Part shown: piece after piece, positions 6,153 through 54,683 of the stretch | Layout: each line of letters begins with the position of its first letter | Position numbering within the stretch: position 1 is the stretch's first letter | Source: a phage | Strand: one strand, 5' to 3' | DNA: 64,000 bases | Sequence record: PZ445523.1 | Translations under genes and position numbers: made by a program | The notes under the pieces: model-generated | Databases searched by the model: none | What the model was told of the DNA's origin: nothing | Seen by the model: only the letters and a program-made list of their open reading frames with translations

Positions 6153-6177
6153 TTCAATATCCTCATTTGCCCAATTA

Positions 6178-6207
6178 ATTATACCACATCCTTGTGGTAA
6201 AGTAAAC
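6178..6207 (-). promoter_or_regulatory. T4-type early promoter (GTTTAC, 18 nt, TATAAT)
   Basis: attata-N18-gtaaac on plus strand; upstream of rIIA.1/rIIA. Confidence 0.65.
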
Positions 6208-48026: not shown

Positions 48027-48269
48027 TTATTCCTTAATTCCTAGTACTTGTTTGAAGGTCTCAGTATAATCGGAGTATTGACCGGTTTGTTCTTTATATT
48101 TGTTCATAATATCATAAACTTCTAAACGCATATTATTATACGAACGGGTTAAAGCGGATTTCAATACTGAATAACTATCCGGAAATTTACCATGTTCTTT
48201 ATAATAGGCCAGAGTTAATTCACGGACCGCTTTATCAGCAGTCTCAAGATATTCTTTACGCTTTGCCAT
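48027..48269 (-). CDS. hypothetical protein (80 aa from ATG at 48269)
   Basis: ORF track trimmed. Confidence 0.4.
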
Positions 48270-48570
48270 TTTCTTCTCGCTCAAATCGGTGTTTACAATG
48301 GCGACATTTATAACGAAGATTATTAGTCTGCCAATGGACCAATTGCACCTGTTCAGTTCCACATTCAGGGCAATTAGGAACGTTTTTAGAAGCCCTTTCG
48401 CGACGTTCAATCATGACCATTACAGAATCCCAATTAACAGGAGGGCTATAATCATCACAACCATGAATCTTTCCACGCATTTCCAGATCGTCTTCTTCAC
48501 CAGCCATAATAATTTTAATTAAACTGGAATTACTTGAAGCTGCAATGTCTTCTAATAGACGCTTTTTCAT
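48256..48570 (-). CDS. zinc-finger protein (104 aa; CPECG...CRHCKH)
   Basis: ORF track; Cys pairs. Confidence 0.5.
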
Positions 48571-49493
48571 TTCAATACCTCAATAGCATTACGTAAACCA
48601 TTTGCTTTGGCGGTTAAAGCCTTAAGAACTTTAGTATGCTCTTCAATTTGTTTTTCAACTTCAATCAAACGAGCATTGAGATATTCGCGTTCTTCTTTCA
48701 TAGTATCATTTCCATGATTGGATTTTGGTGTAGGTTTAAATTCACTAGGGTCCTTTAATTTAATAACAAATTTAGTTTCAAACAGTGAAAGACCATAATT
48801 CGTATTATCATCAAAGGATTTGACTACATCCATATCAGATAATAACACGCGCAAATTATAAGCCAAAGAACTAATAGTTTCATTGTGTTTATTAGCTTCG
48901 CGTGGTTTCATATACGGAAGATTTTTATATATCTCATGCGGAGCGCAAACGATAATTGACAATTCAAATTGTCCATTCTGGGACGATGGAGTGAATTTAG
49001 CCGTAACCCAGTCTTTTACATTCACATTAATAGTACGGTTATCACCATGACAAAACAGTCTACGAGAATGCTTAAAAAGCATATTCACGTTATTATTGAA
49101 TTCGTGTGAAAATTCACTAGCAAATTTTTCTTTACTATCTTTAGAAAACCATTCTTCTAAATAAGTTCTTTTCACGTCGTTAATAATATTAAATGTAACA
49201 ACATTAGCATTTGATACATTAGTCTCAATGTAGCTTGGATACATAAATTTTTTAACATTATTAACAGCTATCACAGAAGATAGTAATCGGGAACGTTTGA
49301 ACCACTCGAGCAAAGAACCAAGAGAATGTGAATACGCATTTTGTGTATCTTTACAAATATGGTTTTCCCATCCAATATAGTCTAAAAAATCACGAAGAAT
49401 ATTATTGATTACTGCTCTGTGTCCGATCTGATAATTACGGTGTTTAGTAATAAGACTGTCAAAATAATCAATATAATGTTTACGAGTTTTCAT
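48567..49493 (-). CDS. tandem paralog family member 1 (308 aa), C-terminal coiled coil
   Basis: ORF track; shares central motif and coiled-coil tail with the next three genes. Confidence 0.6.
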   Translation of the reverse strand: MKTRKHYIDYFDSLITKHRNYQIGHRAVINNILRDFLDYIGWENHICKDTQNAYSHSLGSLLEWFKRSRLLSSVIAVNNVKKFMYPSYIETNVSNANVVTFNIINDVKRTYLEEWFSKDSKEKFASEFSHEFNNNVNMLFKHSRRLFCHGDNRTINVNVKDWVTAKFTPSSQNGQFELSIIVCAPHEIYKNLPYMKPREANKHNETISSLAYNLRVLLSDMDVVKSFDDNTNYGLSLFETKFVIKLKDPSEFKPTPKSNHGNDTMKEEREYLNARLIEVEKQIEEHTKVLKALTAKANGLRNAIEVLK

Positions 49494-49545
49494 GTTCTTC
49501 TCACTTGGTTAATGGTTTATACTCCGAGCCATCCTTGGCTTTAAA

Positions 49546-50547
49546 TTACTTAATTAACTGTAAAGCTTGTTCAAGACGATCCAGGCGATTAACAGATTCT
49601 TCCCAAATCCTTTTAGCCTGCTCATATTCTTTCTGTGCTTTATTAGAAATTTCTAGAACTTCTTTATAAGCTTTTTCTAGTGCAATAACTTCTGGACGAA
49701 TTTCTATCGGTTCAGGTGAATCGTCAAGACATTCCATTAGTTCCTCAAGGGTAGTTTCTTCTTTAGGAGTATTCACAATTTCATCACATTTTTGCTGGTA
49801 AATTTCTTTATCAGTCGGTGAGTACGCACACTTTACTTCACGAAGACTAACTACAATTTTATATCCTTCCCAACCGCATATATTCTTAAAAGGATAAGTA
49901 TGAATATTTTCTACTGTTTCCATACAAAGTAATGCAGTCTCTAACTGACGAGTTATATCACTAGCAATTGAGAAAAATTTATTAATGTTCTTTTGATTAG
50001 CTTCTGGTGTAAAAAATTCATAATTCACAAAAATAGCTGCTTTATTTTTATCAAGTTCATATTCTTTTATGATAATCATATCAGAAGCCAAAGGATGAAT
50101 TTGACGATAATCGCCATAACATAATTTAGAAGCTGATTTTAGAATTTGCTTCTTGAAAAGTCTAAAATTACTAACCCAACGACGAGTAAAAATATTCTCA
50201 GGGTCTTCTTTATTATTAAGATGATAAGAATTAACATCACCGAACCAGCTGTATCCTACTACATTTTTAGTTCGTTTAATTTCTTTCCCAAATTTACTAA
50301 GAATATCTTGATTAACTAAATATGAAAGAAGACGAGACTCTTTAAAGGTTTTCTTGATATTATCTTTATCTACACGGCTAGAAATTTTACGAATTTCATG
50401 AATAAATTTAGCAGAAGAAACAATACCTGCATCAACACTATTGAGCCATTGATTGATAATAGAAAGAACGCTATTTTGGCCAAACATCGGTATAGCTTTA
50501 CCATCAATAACGCTATTGAATGATTTGATATATTCGTTACGAGTCAT
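49546..50547 (-). CDS. tandem paralog family member 2 (333 aa from ATG at 50547)
   Basis: ORF track trimmed (GAGGAG SD); early promoter upstream. Confidence 0.6.
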   Translation of the reverse strand: MTRNEYIKSFNSVIDGKAIPMFGQNSVLSIINQWLNSVDAGIVSSAKFIHEIRKISSRVDKDNIKKTFKESRLLSYLVNQDILSKFGKEIKRTKNVVGYSWFGDVNSYHLNNKEDPENIFTRRWVSNFRLFKKQILKSASKLCYGDYRQIHPLASDMIIIKEYELDKNKAAIFVNYEFFTPEANQKNINKFFSIASDITRQLETALLCMETVENIHTYPFKNICGWEGYKIVVSLREVKCAYSPTDKEIYQQKCDEIVNTPKEETTLEELMECLDDSPEPIEIRPEVIALEKAYKEVLEISNKAQKEYEQAKRIWEESVNRLDRLEQALQLIK

Positions 50548-50575
50548 AATAATCTCCTCAGTAGAAAGTAAGAAC

Positions 50576-50605
50576 ATTATACCACATCCTTGTGGCAAAG
50601 TAAAC
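50576..50605 (-). promoter_or_regulatory. T4-type early promoter (near-identical to the one at 6178-6207)
   Basis: attataccacatccttgtggcaaagtaaac. Confidence 0.6.
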
Positions 50606-51627
50606 TAGTTCAGTGCATTTAGTGCATTGTTCAGTTTAGAACGTTGCTTTGCCAGATTTTGAACCCTTGACTGCGCTTGTTCTAACACCTTTTCAGCTTC
50701 TAGCACTTCATTGGTCGCTTTAACGAGTTCATCATCTACTGCCTTAAGAGACTTCTCAATCGCATCAGCGTGCCATTTTTCTACAGGTTTAAAATTTGAA
50801 TTTTCAGTAGGAAGAAAATTCACTTTATTAAGTTTACATGCATCTATATTGCTTGAGCTATACATCCAAAATTTAGGATCGTTTGAGGAGTAATTAGATG
50901 AATTTAAGGTATCTTGCACTTCCTGCTTTTTCTCTTGAACAACTTCGTCCTTTCTCAAAAATTCATATTTAAATGAAACGACCATATCAAGTTCATATGT
51001 TGTTGTGTCTAATTTAAATCGTTCGAAATGCCGCGAAATCCTAGACTGAACACCAGCAACAACATCCATATACTTAAATGCTTCTGTCAACTGTGATTTA
51101 AGGCATTCACAAATTGAAAGAGAATTTTTTGTATTAGGTTTAAAGCTAATTCGTGCAGTTCTATTATTTTCTTTTAACGGTCTTACTTCCATCTGAAGAG
51201 TATAACCATCAAATTTAAGATTCTTTAAGTTAATATCAGAACCTTTTAATCGACTAGCAGTAGACAAAATTTGCTTTAATTGTTTACGGAATAAAGCAAT
51301 AAATCTCCATTCAAGACGATAATGATTTGGATTAAAAAATCCAGTTGATAGATCGGTCTTACTTTGACCAACGCCTCGAACAAATAGAGGATTTTTATAA
51401 TCAATAGTTTTACAGAAATCAACGAGCTGCTCGCGAGCAGTCATTTGTGTAATATACCCTGATTCATTAAAATTACGCACCCATTCACTGCTGTTCAGAT
51501 GTTTAAAGGCGTGAATGGAACAATTAACTTTATTAAGGTCTAAATTATTTTCACACAAAAATGTCATAACATCACGATTATAGCTGGCATTACGAACCAT
51601 ATCTTCAATTTGAGAACGAGTTTTCAT
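50605..51627 (-). CDS. tandem paralog family member 3 (340 aa)
   Basis: ORF track. Confidence 0.6.
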   Translation of the reverse strand: MKTRSQIEDMVRNASYNRDVMTFLCENNLDLNKVNCSIHAFKHLNSSEWVRNFNESGYITQMTAREQLVDFCKTIDYKNPLFVRGVGQSKTDLSTGFFNPNHYRLEWRFIALFRKQLKQILSTASRLKGSDINLKNLKFDGYTLQMEVRPLKENNRTARISFKPNTKNSLSICECLKSQLTEAFKYMDVVAGVQSRISRHFERFKLDTTTYELDMVVSFKYEFLRKDEVVQEKKQEVQDTLNSSNYSSNDPKFWMYSSSNIDACKLNKVNFLPTENSNFKPVEKWHADAIEKSLKAVDDELVKATNEVLEAEKVLEQAQSRVQNLAKQRSKLNNALNALN

Positions 51628-51635
51628 GGTGTTCC

Positions 51636-52550
51636 TTAAGATTTAAGTAAATCAACAATTTTAATTAACTTTTCACGCTCAGATTTAGCTTTACTACTCA
51701 GTCCAGATAGTCTGAAAATTTCATCGTCATATTGTTGAATAGAAATATTCAGCTCTTCAATTTGCTTATTAAAATAATCAATTTGCTCAGAATGTTTTTC
51801 GTTACTACGAACTGGTGCAGGTTTTGTAGGCAATTTAGTTGAACTGGATTCATCCGGGCGATAAATTAAAATACAATTTGAACCAATCGGGCATTTAGCA
51901 CCAGACACATATTCTAATGTTCCAGCTTCTTTTAAAACTTCAAAAGCTAAACAGAGATGATGCCCCATATTAACATAATCTGTAGAGCGAGCTCTGATGT
52001 AATAATCATCTCCACGAGTACTAAATTTAAAGCATTTAAGGTCTTCTGTATTATTAGTTTTAAAAATCATTTGTTTATCTAGACCTTTAGCTAATCGAGC
52101 GCCTAATGCTAATAATCGTCGTTGATTTTCCCACAAATCCGCAATCATTTGGTCGAATGATAATTTCGGCATTAGTCGGCCATAAAGGTCATATCCTTTA
52201 TTATAATTACGAAGGATTTCACTCGCGTTAATACGAGACAATGCTCCAATTTTATTAAGGGCTTTCATAATGCGATTAGATAAACTCATTCCAGACCCAT
52301 TTGTTCGCTGTAAATGTTTTTCTAATCCAAATCCAATATCAACTTTAAATTTATCTAAAATTTCAGCATGAACATCTCTGTCAATAACATTCAAATCCAA
52401 AGTTGGGTTAAATCTATGAAAAAATTTATCTGGCTCTCCACGACGAAATACAGTCCATTCATTCATCATTTTTTTATTAACTAAGGATTTAATTACTGCA
52501 TTGACATTATTAATTACTACTGACATATTTTCCTCACTCAATTTTACCAA
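51636..52550 (-). CDS. tandem paralog family member 4 (304 aa)
   Basis: ORF track. Confidence 0.6.
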   Translation of the reverse strand: MVKLSEENMSVVINNVNAVIKSLVNKKMMNEWTVFRRGEPDKFFHRFNPTLDLNVIDRDVHAEILDKFKVDIGFGLEKHLQRTNGSGMSLSNRIMKALNKIGALSRINASEILRNYNKGYDLYGRLMPKLSFDQMIADLWENQRRLLALGARLAKGLDKQMIFKTNNTEDLKCFKFSTRGDDYYIRARSTDYVNMGHHLCLAFEVLKEAGTLEYVSGAKCPIGSNCILIYRPDESSSTKLPTKPAPVRSNEKHSEQIDYFNKQIEELNISIQQYDDEIFRLSGLSSKAKSEREKLIKIVDLLKS

Positions 52551-52935: not shown

Positions 52936-52990
52936 AATAATCTCAATTAAAAGGGCTTAGAACCATTATACCATCCTTGGTATAAAGCGG

Positions 52991-53518
52991 TTATGCGAGT
53001 ACCGTCTTTAACCGTTCTTCAAACTTCCGAAGAGTATTCTGGCGTTCAGCTCTTTGCTTTTTGTAAGTTTCAATACGCTCTGAAATGAGAGTGTATCGTT
53101 CATTTACTGATTCTTTCATAAAATCAGGAATTTCACGAGAAGCTTTAATCTCGTCAAATTTATCAATAACAGCTTGCTCTTCAGCAATTAAGTTATCATA
53201 CATCAAAATATCTTTCTTGATGAACTCAATATCTTCTTGAGTTACACGAGATAACTTAGATGCTTTATCCTTTTTGTACTGTTCGTTAGTATCACGAGAC
53301 CAGTGTAATGTACGATTTTTATTCGTATTCTTGTAAATTTCTACAATACCAATCTCATCAATAATAACGATCCAATTCCAACGGGATTTGTAAATTTGTC
53401 CTCCATCAACAGTGATTTCACCTCCGATTGAGATGTCATTAAAGAACTTGCTTTGTGCTTCAGATTTAAATTTACCATCGTTGTAATTTACCAGGTTGAA
53501 AATATCTTTAGCGTTCAT
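52991..53518 (-). CDS. hypothetical protein (175 aa from ATG at 53518)
   Basis: ORF track trimmed: upstream part is translated promoter/leader; GGAGGA SD. Confidence 0.5.
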   Translation of the reverse strand: MNAKDIFNLVNYNDGKFKSEAQSKFFNDISIGGEITVDGGQIYKSRWNWIVIIDEIGIVEIYKNTNKNRTLHWSRDTNEQYKKDKASKLSRVTQEDIEFIKKDILMYDNLIAEEQAVIDKFDEIKASREIPDFMKESVNERYTLISERIETYKKQRAERQNTLRKFEERLKTVLA

Positions 53519-53963: not shown

Positions 53964-54683
53964 TTATGATTCTTCTAAATGTCTTTTCTGAAAAGTTGAT
54001 ACCATACTACGATAAGGTTCATTTGGATACCCGTGTTTTATAGCTTCCTTTGTAAATTTTCTCCATCCGTATTTAGTTTCTTTCCAAAGCTCGAATAATT
54101 CATCTTCATACTGCCATATAGTTAAATGAGAACGCTTTGCAGCTTTAATTCCATTAATGTGCTTTTCTTTTACTGTAGGATTGCTTAGTGTCTTTTTAAT
54201 AATATTACTAACTTTTCTAACAAAAGCTGGGTCCTTATATCGTTGTGAAGTTTTTATTGAAGTGTTTAATTTAGCTTCCGGCGTGGATGTGACCTCTTTC
54301 ATCTTTTTCTTCATATGCTCTATATGATTAGGATTTTTCCATAAATTTATAGAATGCTTTTTACATTTTATCCTAGTTTCATCTGCAACCTTTCCTCCTT
54401 CACCCCCATATGACAGGTTAACGCAGTTTTTTCCATATTTCAATTTACCTGCCATGATATATAATATTTCGGCTTGTACCATTTTATCATAATTATCAAA
54501 AACTTCTAAAACCGTTTTTGATAATATATGGTCATTTGACACTTTTACACGTTCTATATAATTTCCACTACCAACATACGAATCATTGATGTTATTAGTT
54601 ATATGTCGACCATAATAGTATTTCTTAATACCTGTCTTTAAATTTAATATTTCAGTTTTATAGATAGTAAAATATTTTTTCAT
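53964..54683 (-). mobile_element. GIY-YIG-type homing endonuclease-like gene (Seg-like), 239 aa, possibly degenerate
   Basis: N-terminus FTIYKTEILNLKTGIKKYYYGRH resembles GIY...YIG...R..H; lysine-rich helical C-terminus. Confidence 0.45.

Follow-up and report, generated by a model that had tools for sequence, protein, structure and literature searches.

The window analysed here, a 64,000-nucleotide stretch of phage DNA (PZ445523.1), contains four consecutive genes, nrdC.3, nrdC.4, nrdC.5 and nrdC.6, whose kinship and likely role are the subject of this analysis. The 5-kb region that holds them was 94-96% identical to phages T2 and T4, with 596 phage records matching, and the window therefore belongs to a Tequatrovirus (T2/T4-like). 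The preliminary description of this DNA had reported four tandem open reading frames (ORFs) of 300-340 amino acids (aa). These were indeed present on the minus strand, with lengths of 308, 333, 340 and 296 aa, and were identified by where they lie and by how T4 GT7, T2 and the reference T4 record are annotated. The copies were lettered A (nrdC.3), B (nrdC.4), C (nrdC.5) and D (nrdC.6), and the features of these genes given below all lie on the same strand. The nrdC.3 gene (48567-49493), a member of phrog_1435, ends in a stop codon that overlaps the start of nrdC.2. The nrdC.4 gene (49546-50547) begins at the ATG at 50547, preceded by the Shine-Dalgarno sequence GAGGAG (50554-50559), and shares its PHROG with nrdC.3. 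The product of nrdC.5 (50605-51627) belongs to the Pfam family DUF7235 and is 88% identical in amino acids to T4 NrdC.5. The nrdC.6 gene (51636-52526), whose homologs carry PF26899, begins at the ATG at 52526 with GAGGA in front. The end coordinate of 52550 given previously fits only a TTG-extended form of this ORF and had to be given up. The gap of 8 nucleotides (nt) between nrdC.6 and nrdC.5 and the ATGA overlap at the nrdC.3-nrdC.2 junction both indicated tight coupling. In T4 and T2, as in the window, nrdC.5 is flanked by nrdC.6 and nrdC.4.

Existing databases divide the four proteins among three families. PF26897 and PHROG 1435 cover nrdC.3 and nrdC.4, PF23882 and PHROG 2351 cover nrdC.5, and PF26899 and PHROG 2257 cover nrdC.6. 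The match of nrdC.5 to DUF7235 (PF23882) spanned positions 1-307 of the 307 in the profile and scored 371 bits (E 5.8e-111), against a gathering score of 30 bits. Only a sub-threshold 12-bit match to this profile, inside the coiled coil, was seen for nrdC.3, and the Pfam scan gave no DUF7235 match for nrdC.4 or nrdC.6. The phrog_1435 profile matched both nrdC.3 (E 5e-101) and nrdC.4 (E 2e-166) over their full length, and close homologs of nrdC.3 carried a precomputed match to PF26897 (Phage_T4_Y04OP). The nrdC.6 protein matched phrog_2257 at E 3e-151, and a precomputed match to PF26899 (Phage_T4_Y05B) was found in all 109 of its homologs, including those that were 98% identical. Pfam and PHROGs thus hold three unlinked families of unknown function, whereas we propose one superfamily for all four proteins.

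No known fold, enzyme or defence family was recognised for any of the four in Pfam, NCBIfam or PADLOC, where only sub-threshold coiled-coil noise appeared, and a sequence profile search of the PDB gave no match. The view that these are related proteins outside the known structural and enzymatic families was therefore not refuted, as the proteins proved to be related and no such family was matched. Many GenBank phage records label nrdC.3-nrdC.11 as 'thioredoxin' (hits H3, H6, H9 and H16, and loci L008 and L011). We rejected a thioredoxin or glutaredoxin identity, since none of the four proteins matched the thioredoxin or glutaredoxin models in Pfam or NCBIfam. The label is a misannotation carried over from the gene name 'nrdC.x'.

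Direct comparison joined three of the four genes. Pairwise blastp gave a significant match only between nrdC.3 and nrdC.4 (E 8e-4). The same pair aligned in hhalign with 97% probability over about 225 columns (E 3e-11 to 7e-12), and the nrdC.4 proteins of phages VR7 and CLB_P2 bridged the two in phmmer searches. Judged by sequence, nrdC.3 and nrdC.4 are clear paralogs. A combined nrdC.3 and nrdC.4 profile aligned with nrdC.5 over 248 collinear columns (89%, E 2e-6), and richer profiles gave 41% for nrdC.4-nrdC.5 and 31% for nrdC.3-nrdC.5. When the coiled coil of nrdC.5 was removed, the first jackhmmer round against a database of 432 sequences recovered nrdC.4 (8e-5) and nrdC.3 (9e-4). Direct comparison thus makes nrdC.5 a probable paralog of nrdC.3 and nrdC.4. 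The identity of nrdC.3, nrdC.4 and nrdC.6 to T4 NrdC.5 is at or below about 20-25%. One outside candidate, gp164 of the Acinetobacter phage KARL-1, was left out of the family. It aligned with nrdC.3 at 72% in hhalign over the C-terminal half only, and the profile converged without it.

The central motif that the preliminary description had noticed was found in all four proteins, at collinear positions. It occupies aa 124-151 of nrdC.3 (49041-49124; ...MLFKHSRRLFCHGD), aa 122-146 of nrdC.4 (50110-50184; RRWVSNFRLFKKQILKSASKLCYGD), aa 105-131 of nrdC.5 (51235-51315; LEWRFIALFRKQLKQILSTASRLKGSD) and aa 129-150 of nrdC.6 (52077-52142; ADLWENQRRLLALGARLAKGLD). It forms the invariant block inside the nrdC.6 family, and in the alignment of the four families no internal column other than L127 and G129 (nrdC.5 numbering) was invariant. 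The models of both nrdC.5 and nrdC.6 placed it in a predicted helix, at residues 104-124 in nrdC.5 and within helices spanning 124-156 in nrdC.6.

The second shared element lies at the C-terminus, where a coiled coil had likewise been proposed for all four. The best 35-aa heptad window fell at the extreme C-terminus of each protein, with shuffle p values of 0.055 for nrdC.3, 0.095 for nrdC.4, below 0.005 for nrdC.5 and 0.03 for nrdC.6. No C-terminal heptad pattern of this kind was seen in the control neighbours nrdC.7, nrdC.8, nrdC.10 and nrdC.11. The heptad or coiled-coil segments correspond to 48570-48704 in nrdC.3, 49549-49683 in nrdC.4 and 50608-50742 in nrdC.5, the last with a predicted helix at residues 284-339. 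In nrdC.6, the segment at 51639-51773 was predicted as a helical hairpin or coiled coil, with helices at 246-272 and 278-295. The heptad windows in all four, and the long C-terminal helices in the AlphaFold models of nrdC.5 and nrdC.6, thus bore out the coiled coil. The nearby nrdC.8 (175 aa, 52991-53518) also has a charged helical C-terminal end, with a non-significant heptad p value of 0.3, and the superfamily profile leaves it out.

The four families aligned collinearly in MAFFT through four blocks. The first reads F/L-K/N-x-S/G-x-L-S ... L..F/Y, the second is the motif helix, the third is a [KEAQ]-P-[VIT] motif that precedes the last helix, and the fourth is the terminal L..[AV][LI]..L[KN]. 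Structure prediction was run for nrdC.5 and nrdC.6, with predicted local distance difference test (pLDDT) scores of 51 and 77, respectively, the former being of low confidence. The order of elements was alike in the nrdC.6 model and the poor nrdC.5 model: N-terminal helices, the motif helix, a β-hairpin, a helix, a second β-hairpin, a disordered linker and the C-terminal helix or helices. The architecture that the four proteins probably share is a variable N-terminal helical domain and a conserved motif helix (...[AS][SR][KR]L..G.D), then a core of β-hairpin, helix and β-hairpin, a disordered linker ending in K/E/A-P-V/I/T, and a conserved C-terminal coiled coil ending in L..A(L/I)..LK. Inside the families, variation was lowest in the coiled coil and the motif helix and highest in the N-domain, the linker and the latter half of the core.

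The nrdC.5 model (m22c9da2a4024) did not recover its own family in Foldseek. Its core, at about residues 140-220, matched tail-terminator and tail-completion proteins of about 130 aa in BFVD (E 1e-4 to 1e-3). The likeness is unreliable, although of interest in view of the sensing of virion proteins by defence sirtuins. We did not build on it, since the better nrdC.6 model gave no such matches.

Whether nrdC.6 belongs to the same family was less obvious, and several results weigh against it. An all-against-all phmmer comparison of the first loci gave three clusters, with no match between clusters at E<1. Probabilities in hhalign between nrdC.6 and nrdC.3, nrdC.4 or nrdC.5 were at most 5%. When hidden Markov models (HMMs) of nrdC.3, nrdC.4 and nrdC.5 together were run against all 255 ORFs of the window, nrdC.6 scored E 0.099 with the full HMM and was not among the nine best with the core HMM. 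Searching in reverse, from nrdC.6, failed as well. The motif alone is therefore no proof of homology. Even where a link was found, the individual edges were weak (13-18 bits). The intermediates described below were picked with a profile that mixed the four families, so that sequences resembling several of them could have been favoured, and the nrdC.5 model was too poor for a direct comparison with that of nrdC.6.

As all direct tests failed, nrdC.6 was tested in five independent ways. The hhalign score of the combined nrdC.3, nrdC.4 and nrdC.5 profile against nrdC.6 was 26.7. None of 100 column-shuffled nrdC.6 profiles reached this value (null 13.7±2.2, maximum 23.5, z=6), and removal of the coiled coil left a score of 23.5 against 12.4±2.2 (z=5). 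The reversed profile scored 14.5 and unrelated families 11-16. In Foldseek, the nrdC.6 model matched full-length proteins of 300-335 aa from distant T4-like phages with a probability of about 1. One of these, Mineola_080 (E 1e-3, probability 1.0), was related to nrdC.5 in hhalign (76%, 244 columns).

Searches of larger sequence sets gave concordant results. The four-family profile was run against 1.84 billion representative proteins and matched only about 33, as representatives at 50% identity, at E<=1e-3, nearly all of them over the full length and 285-348 aa long. Among the intermediates, P0209 was matched by the single-family HMMs of both nrdC.5 (1e-13) and nrdC.6 (8e-17). Without its coiled coil, P0210 was matched by those of nrdC.5 (6e-7) and nrdC.6 (5e-10), and P0213, similarly trimmed, by all four (nrdC.3 6e-6, nrdC.4 2e-6, nrdC.5 2e-8, nrdC.6 8e-6). 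Control HMMs gave values of at least 1e-2 on the bridging proteins. In a network built after removal of the last 60 residues, and confined to collinear alignments of at least 60 aa, all four window proteins fell into one component at a domain independent E-value (i-E) below 1e-4. Iterative jackhmmer searches from each of the four proteins without the coiled coil, against 41 candidates and 391 decoy ORFs, converged in 5-6 rounds on 40 of the candidates, including the four paralogs, and on none of the decoys. From nrdC.6, the second round recovered nrdC.4, nrdC.3 and nrdC.5 at 1e-3 to 9e-3, the best decoy being at 0.61.

Taken together, these results make it very probable that nrdC.6 is a true homologue of nrdC.3, nrdC.4 and nrdC.5, and no other branch of the superfamily has diverged as far. 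The paralogy claimed by the preliminary description thus held directly for nrdC.3 and nrdC.4 and at profile level for nrdC.5, while nrdC.6 could be joined only through intermediates and structure.

The distribution of the family pointed to the origin of the array. In the whole window, the converged profile found exactly four ORFs. Every Tequatrovirus locus had four copies, Dhakavirus and Gaprivervirus had three, Mosigvirus two or three, and Tegunavirus two, which were dispersed. Phage ESCO47 had only two copies. Jiaodavirus (Mineola) and two uncultured T4-like contigs had one each. Among the single-copy genes, P0210 leans towards nrdC.6 (a weak Pfam Y05B match) and P0222 towards nrdC.3 and nrdC.4 (a weak Y04OP match). 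Both, like Mineola_080, lie in one and the same slot, with nrdC.1, nrdC, 49.x, pin and gene 49 downstream of it. Copy numbers of one to four, together with single-copy genes in the same slot, are as predicted by tandem expansion of one ancestral gene, and the comparison of sequences and gene order leads us to regard the array as such an expansion. In distant T4-like phages, the family member is preceded by a conserved gene of about 260 aa, which is found directly upstream of the single-copy member (L028 7507-8295, L030 5994-6773, L031 2898-3686) or about 1.5 kb upstream of gp94 (L027 6352-7143) and has no Tequatrovirus counterpart at that position.

The locus is still recombining. In a metagenomic Tequatrovirus contig of about 167 kb (P0056), nrdC.4 was deleted and a natural in-frame nrdC.5::nrdC.3 fusion had formed, with nrdC.5 residues of about 146-275 joined at a shared 'VN' to the part of nrdC.3 from the motif helix to the end. 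The paralogs therefore recombine with each other. The nrdC.6 protein of Shigella phage Sf25 (P0057, 378 aa) contained an 82-aa internal tandem duplication, which takes in the latter half of the core together with the linker and the first part of the coiled coil. In two records of a Tequatrovirus (L005 7027-8083 and L016 7923-8979, IMG/VR UViG_2974742932), nrdC.4 was split into two ORFs of 202 and 159 aa and is probably a frameshifted pseudogene. Elsewhere in the region, a 239-aa ORF (53964-54683, minus strand) lies between nrdC.9 and nrdC.10. It was seen in only one other fetched locus (L004), was absent from T4 and T2, and had no Pfam match. A mobile, homing-endonuclease-like insertion is suggested by where it lies and by its patchy occurrence.

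The four genes differed in their rate of change. Amino acid identity to the window copy was bimodal for nrdC.3, with 138 genomes carrying a form at least 90% identical and 294 a form of about 60% identity. It was 90-95% in 333 genomes and 80-90% in 115 for nrdC.4, 80-90% in 438 for nrdC.5 and 95-99% in 474 for nrdC.6; for comparison, gp49 was at least 99% identical in 442 genomes. Ratios of nonsynonymous to synonymous substitution rates (dN/dS), calculated pairwise by the Nei-Gojobori method between the window and 7-8 Tequatrovirus loci, were 0.19 for nrdC.3 (0.30-0.37 against the allele of about 60% identity), 0.20 for nrdC.4, 0.28 for nrdC.5 and 0.09 for nrdC.6. Control values were about 0-0.01 for gp49, nrdC and nrdC.8, 0.04 for nrdC.11 and 0.08 for nrdC.10, and the other accessory genes pin, nrdC.2 and nrdC.7 lay at 0.26-0.33. 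Thus nrdC.3, nrdC.4 and nrdC.5 are fast-evolving accessory genes and nrdC.6 is constrained. Gene-wide positive selection was rejected, since all four ratios were below 1. The strongest signal of divergence is the allelic dimorphism of nrdC.3 within one genus. The adjacent nrdC.2 (48256-48570) also occurred in allele classes of 96%, 78% and about 60%, and the pattern in the two genes looks like cassette-type allelic replacement in genomes that are otherwise about 95% identical. The 'rapidly diverging' family of the preliminary description was therefore partly borne out. Three genes evolve well above their conserved neighbours, one of them being dimorphic, but no dN/dS value exceeded 1 and nrdC.6 is well conserved.

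An early promoter in front of the second copy had also been proposed, and we located an early-type promoter at 50604-50576, between the nrdC.5 stop and the nrdC.4 start, from which nrdC.4 and the downstream genes would be transcribed. It consists of a GTTTACT -35 box and an extended -10 box, TGgTATAAT (GTTTACT-17 nt-TGGTATAAT), and fits the T4 early promoter consensus. This nrdC.4 promoter, GTTTACTTTGCCACAAGGATGTGGTATAAT, has a near-identical 30-nt twin at about 6168-6197 on the same strand. The reference T4 record carries no promoter annotation that could corroborate the one in front of nrdC.4. The promoter spacer folds into a small hairpin (CCACA-AGGA-TGTGG). Hairpins with an AGGA loop beside TATAAT or TATAAA boxes also occur in the intergenic regions nrdC.4/nrdC.3 (49524-49538) and nrdC.8/nrdC.7 (about 52960-52990), and the combination suggests further early-like promoters.

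A function has been published for one member of the family. A T4 clone that had lost accessory genes (evo 3) failed to plate on ECOR17, or on MG1655 carrying the ECOR17 dsr1 gene, and T4 nrdC.5 alone in trans restored its plating on E. coli carrying Dsr1 (Srikant et al. 2022, PMC9391042). The same paper terms nrdC.5 an early gene. The nrdC.5 gene of the window is the orthologue of T4 nrdC.5 by sequence (88% aa) and synteny, and its assignment as a putative anti-Dsr1 factor is supported by this orthology. A few genes downstream of nrdC.3-6 lie gp49.2, an anti-OLD factor (PMC13096335), and nrdC.1, an anti-Septu factor (bioRxiv 10.1101/2025.11.20.689424). Together with nrdC.5, these activities make the region an anti-defence island. 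Homology, locus and expression class point to a counter-defence role for nrdC.3, nrdC.4 and nrdC.6 as well. The 'host-interaction module' first suggested for the four genes thus agrees with published experiments for T4 nrdC.5, whereas for the other three it is a role that we infer.

Considering all of these observations, we favour, with moderate confidence, the explanation that nrdC.3-6 are deeply diverged tandem duplicates of one gene, located just upstream of nrdC in Straboviridae, and that they encode early-made, non-enzymatic inhibitors of host anti-phage immune proteins. The genes would be transcribed early, partly from their own early promoter. As judged from the published T4 orthologue, NrdC.5 would then neutralise the Dsr1 NADase. 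In the most likely mechanism, the protein would oligomerise by way of its coiled coil and bind the defence protein with the variable surfaces of its N-domain and core; on Dsr1, either the TPR sensor or the SIR2 domain could serve as the target. Binding before the late-made capsid protein trigger appears would mean that depletion of nicotinamide adenine dinucleotide (NAD+) is never switched on. The action would be analogous to that of DSAD1 on DSR2 in logic, not in sequence or fold. The targets of the diverged nrdC.3, nrdC.4 and nrdC.6 proteins may be different defence proteins or further variants of the Dsr1 type, which would explain the variable copy number and the nrdC.3 dimorphism.

Several points count against this explanation. 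The experimental link to defence concerns nrdC.5 only, and the T4 allele, which is 88% identical to the window copy. The literature searched held nothing on nrdC.3, nrdC.4 and nrdC.6 beyond their existence. A 2026 preprint reports that the TPR sensor of Dsr1 is triggered by a phage major capsid protein, and this was shown for phage ZL19, not T4 (PMC12803255). That NrdC.5 binds Dsr1 directly, that its coiled coil drives oligomerisation and that it acts ahead of the trigger are steps that we infer. All four dN/dS values are below 1, and the 0.09 of nrdC.6 is an ordinary accessory-gene constraint that fits an arms-race target poorly.

The strongest alternative, which we consider rather unlikely, is that the four are true paralogs of which only NrdC.5 acts in counter-defence. 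The others would have other early roles, such as host takeover or regulation, or would be near-neutral remnants kept by linkage. In the literature searched, no phenotype is reported for nrdC.3, nrdC.4 or nrdC.6, and nrdC.6 is under ordinary purifying selection. The copies are also dispensable, because nrdC.4 is split in L005 and L016 and deleted in P0056, and ESCO47 manages with two copies. However, anti-defence genes typically can be lost without effect on laboratory hosts, and in hundreds of genomes all copies have stayed intact as ORFs and evolve under purifying selection. The locus is, moreover, an experimentally supported anti-defence island, and the nrdC.3 dimorphism is easier to explain by host-dependent selection.

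It is improbable that the paralogs instead form one hetero-oligomeric complex through their similar C-terminal coiled coils, and are not independent inhibitors with separate targets. The terminal signature L..A(L/I)..LK is found in all four proteins, the coiled coil is the most conserved module of each family, and nrdC.6 and nrdC.5 are translationally coupled across their 8-nt gap, which counts in favour of such a complex. Against this, plasmid-borne nrdC.5 alone rescued evo 3, although partner paralogs may have been present in that clone, as the paper does not give the extent of its deletion (PMC9391042); copy number varies from one to four between genera, with single-copy phages among them; and nrdC.4 is lost or pseudogenised in nature. 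Least probable of all is that nrdC.6 is not homologous, its length, helix motif and coiled coil being convergent or due to chance and the array consisting of three paralogs and an unrelated neighbour, since the failure of direct comparisons (blastp, phmmer, hhalign at <=5%, HMM E=0.099) and its separate PHROGs and Pfam families are outweighed by the permutation z of 5-6, the bridging proteins matched by nrdC.5 and nrdC.6 HMMs outside the coiled coil, the jackhmmer convergence with no decoys, the similar order of secondary structure, the Foldseek link to Mineola_080, itself profile-related to nrdC.5, and the single syntenic slot of the nrdC.6-like and nrdC.3/nrdC.4-like single-copy genes.

The inhibitor explanation that we favour can be taken one step further, to a more speculative and rather doubtful proposal. 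The family may be a modular set of 'anti-sensors', in which a conserved coiled-coil scaffold would display variable surfaces of the N-terminal part and the β-core, each paralog blocking a different capsid-sensing TPR-sensor defence protein (Dsr1 clades, Avs7 and related fusions) or another NAD+-depleting sensor. If so, T-even phages could keep pace with the sensors of their hosts by tandem duplication, by exchange of nrdC.3 alleles and by recombining the copies, and the family would be to phages what the multigene families for immune evasion are to large eukaryotic viruses.

Part of this picture was already known. The genes are annotated, the nrdC.5 phenotype is published, and nrdC.3 and nrdC.4 had already been joined (Y04OP, phrog_1435). 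As far as the literature searched shows, what is new is the union of all four in one small superfamily, the history of expansion from one to four copies, and the naming of the three paralogs of the anti-Dsr1 gene as candidate counter-defence genes. Until now, NrdC.5 was an orphan anti-Dsr1 factor without recognised relatives; it now stands in a small superfamily restricted to Straboviridae. As members, nrdC.3, nrdC.4 and nrdC.6 become specific candidates for previously undescribed counter-defence functions of the phage that has been studied most. The natural specificity variants, namely the paralogs, the two nrdC.3 alleles and the single-copy ancestors, could be used to map the surface that recognises the target. 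Three database families of unknown function are merged into one, and the 'thioredoxin' misannotation is corrected.

Among known systems, the closest comparison is T4 NrdC.5 itself. The nrdC.3, nrdC.4 and nrdC.6 proteins probably share its architecture and belong with it in the proposed superfamily, but at the low identity given above they have been filed as separate Pfam and PHROG families. A functional analogy may be drawn with DSAD1, the anti-DSR2 protein of SPbeta-like Bacillus phages, which is also a small non-enzymatic phage protein that switches off a defence-associated sirtuin. In the structures published for it, DSAD1 binds the sensor region and competes with the structural-protein trigger (PMC10981675, PMC11087589), and NrdC.5 may work in this manner. 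We found no likeness of DSAD1 to the nrdC.3-6 proteins in sequence or structure. The other anti-defence sets of T4 (dmd-tifA-adfA, gp49.2, nrdC.1 and the internal proteins IPI/IPIII) are likewise early, non-essential accessory genes. They cluster in hyperplastic regions, are lost or amplified by microhomology recombination, and are each directed against a single host system. However, those sets are single, unrelated small proteins, whereas nrdC.3-6 would represent one fold duplicated up to four times in tandem, with one conserved putative oligomerisation module.

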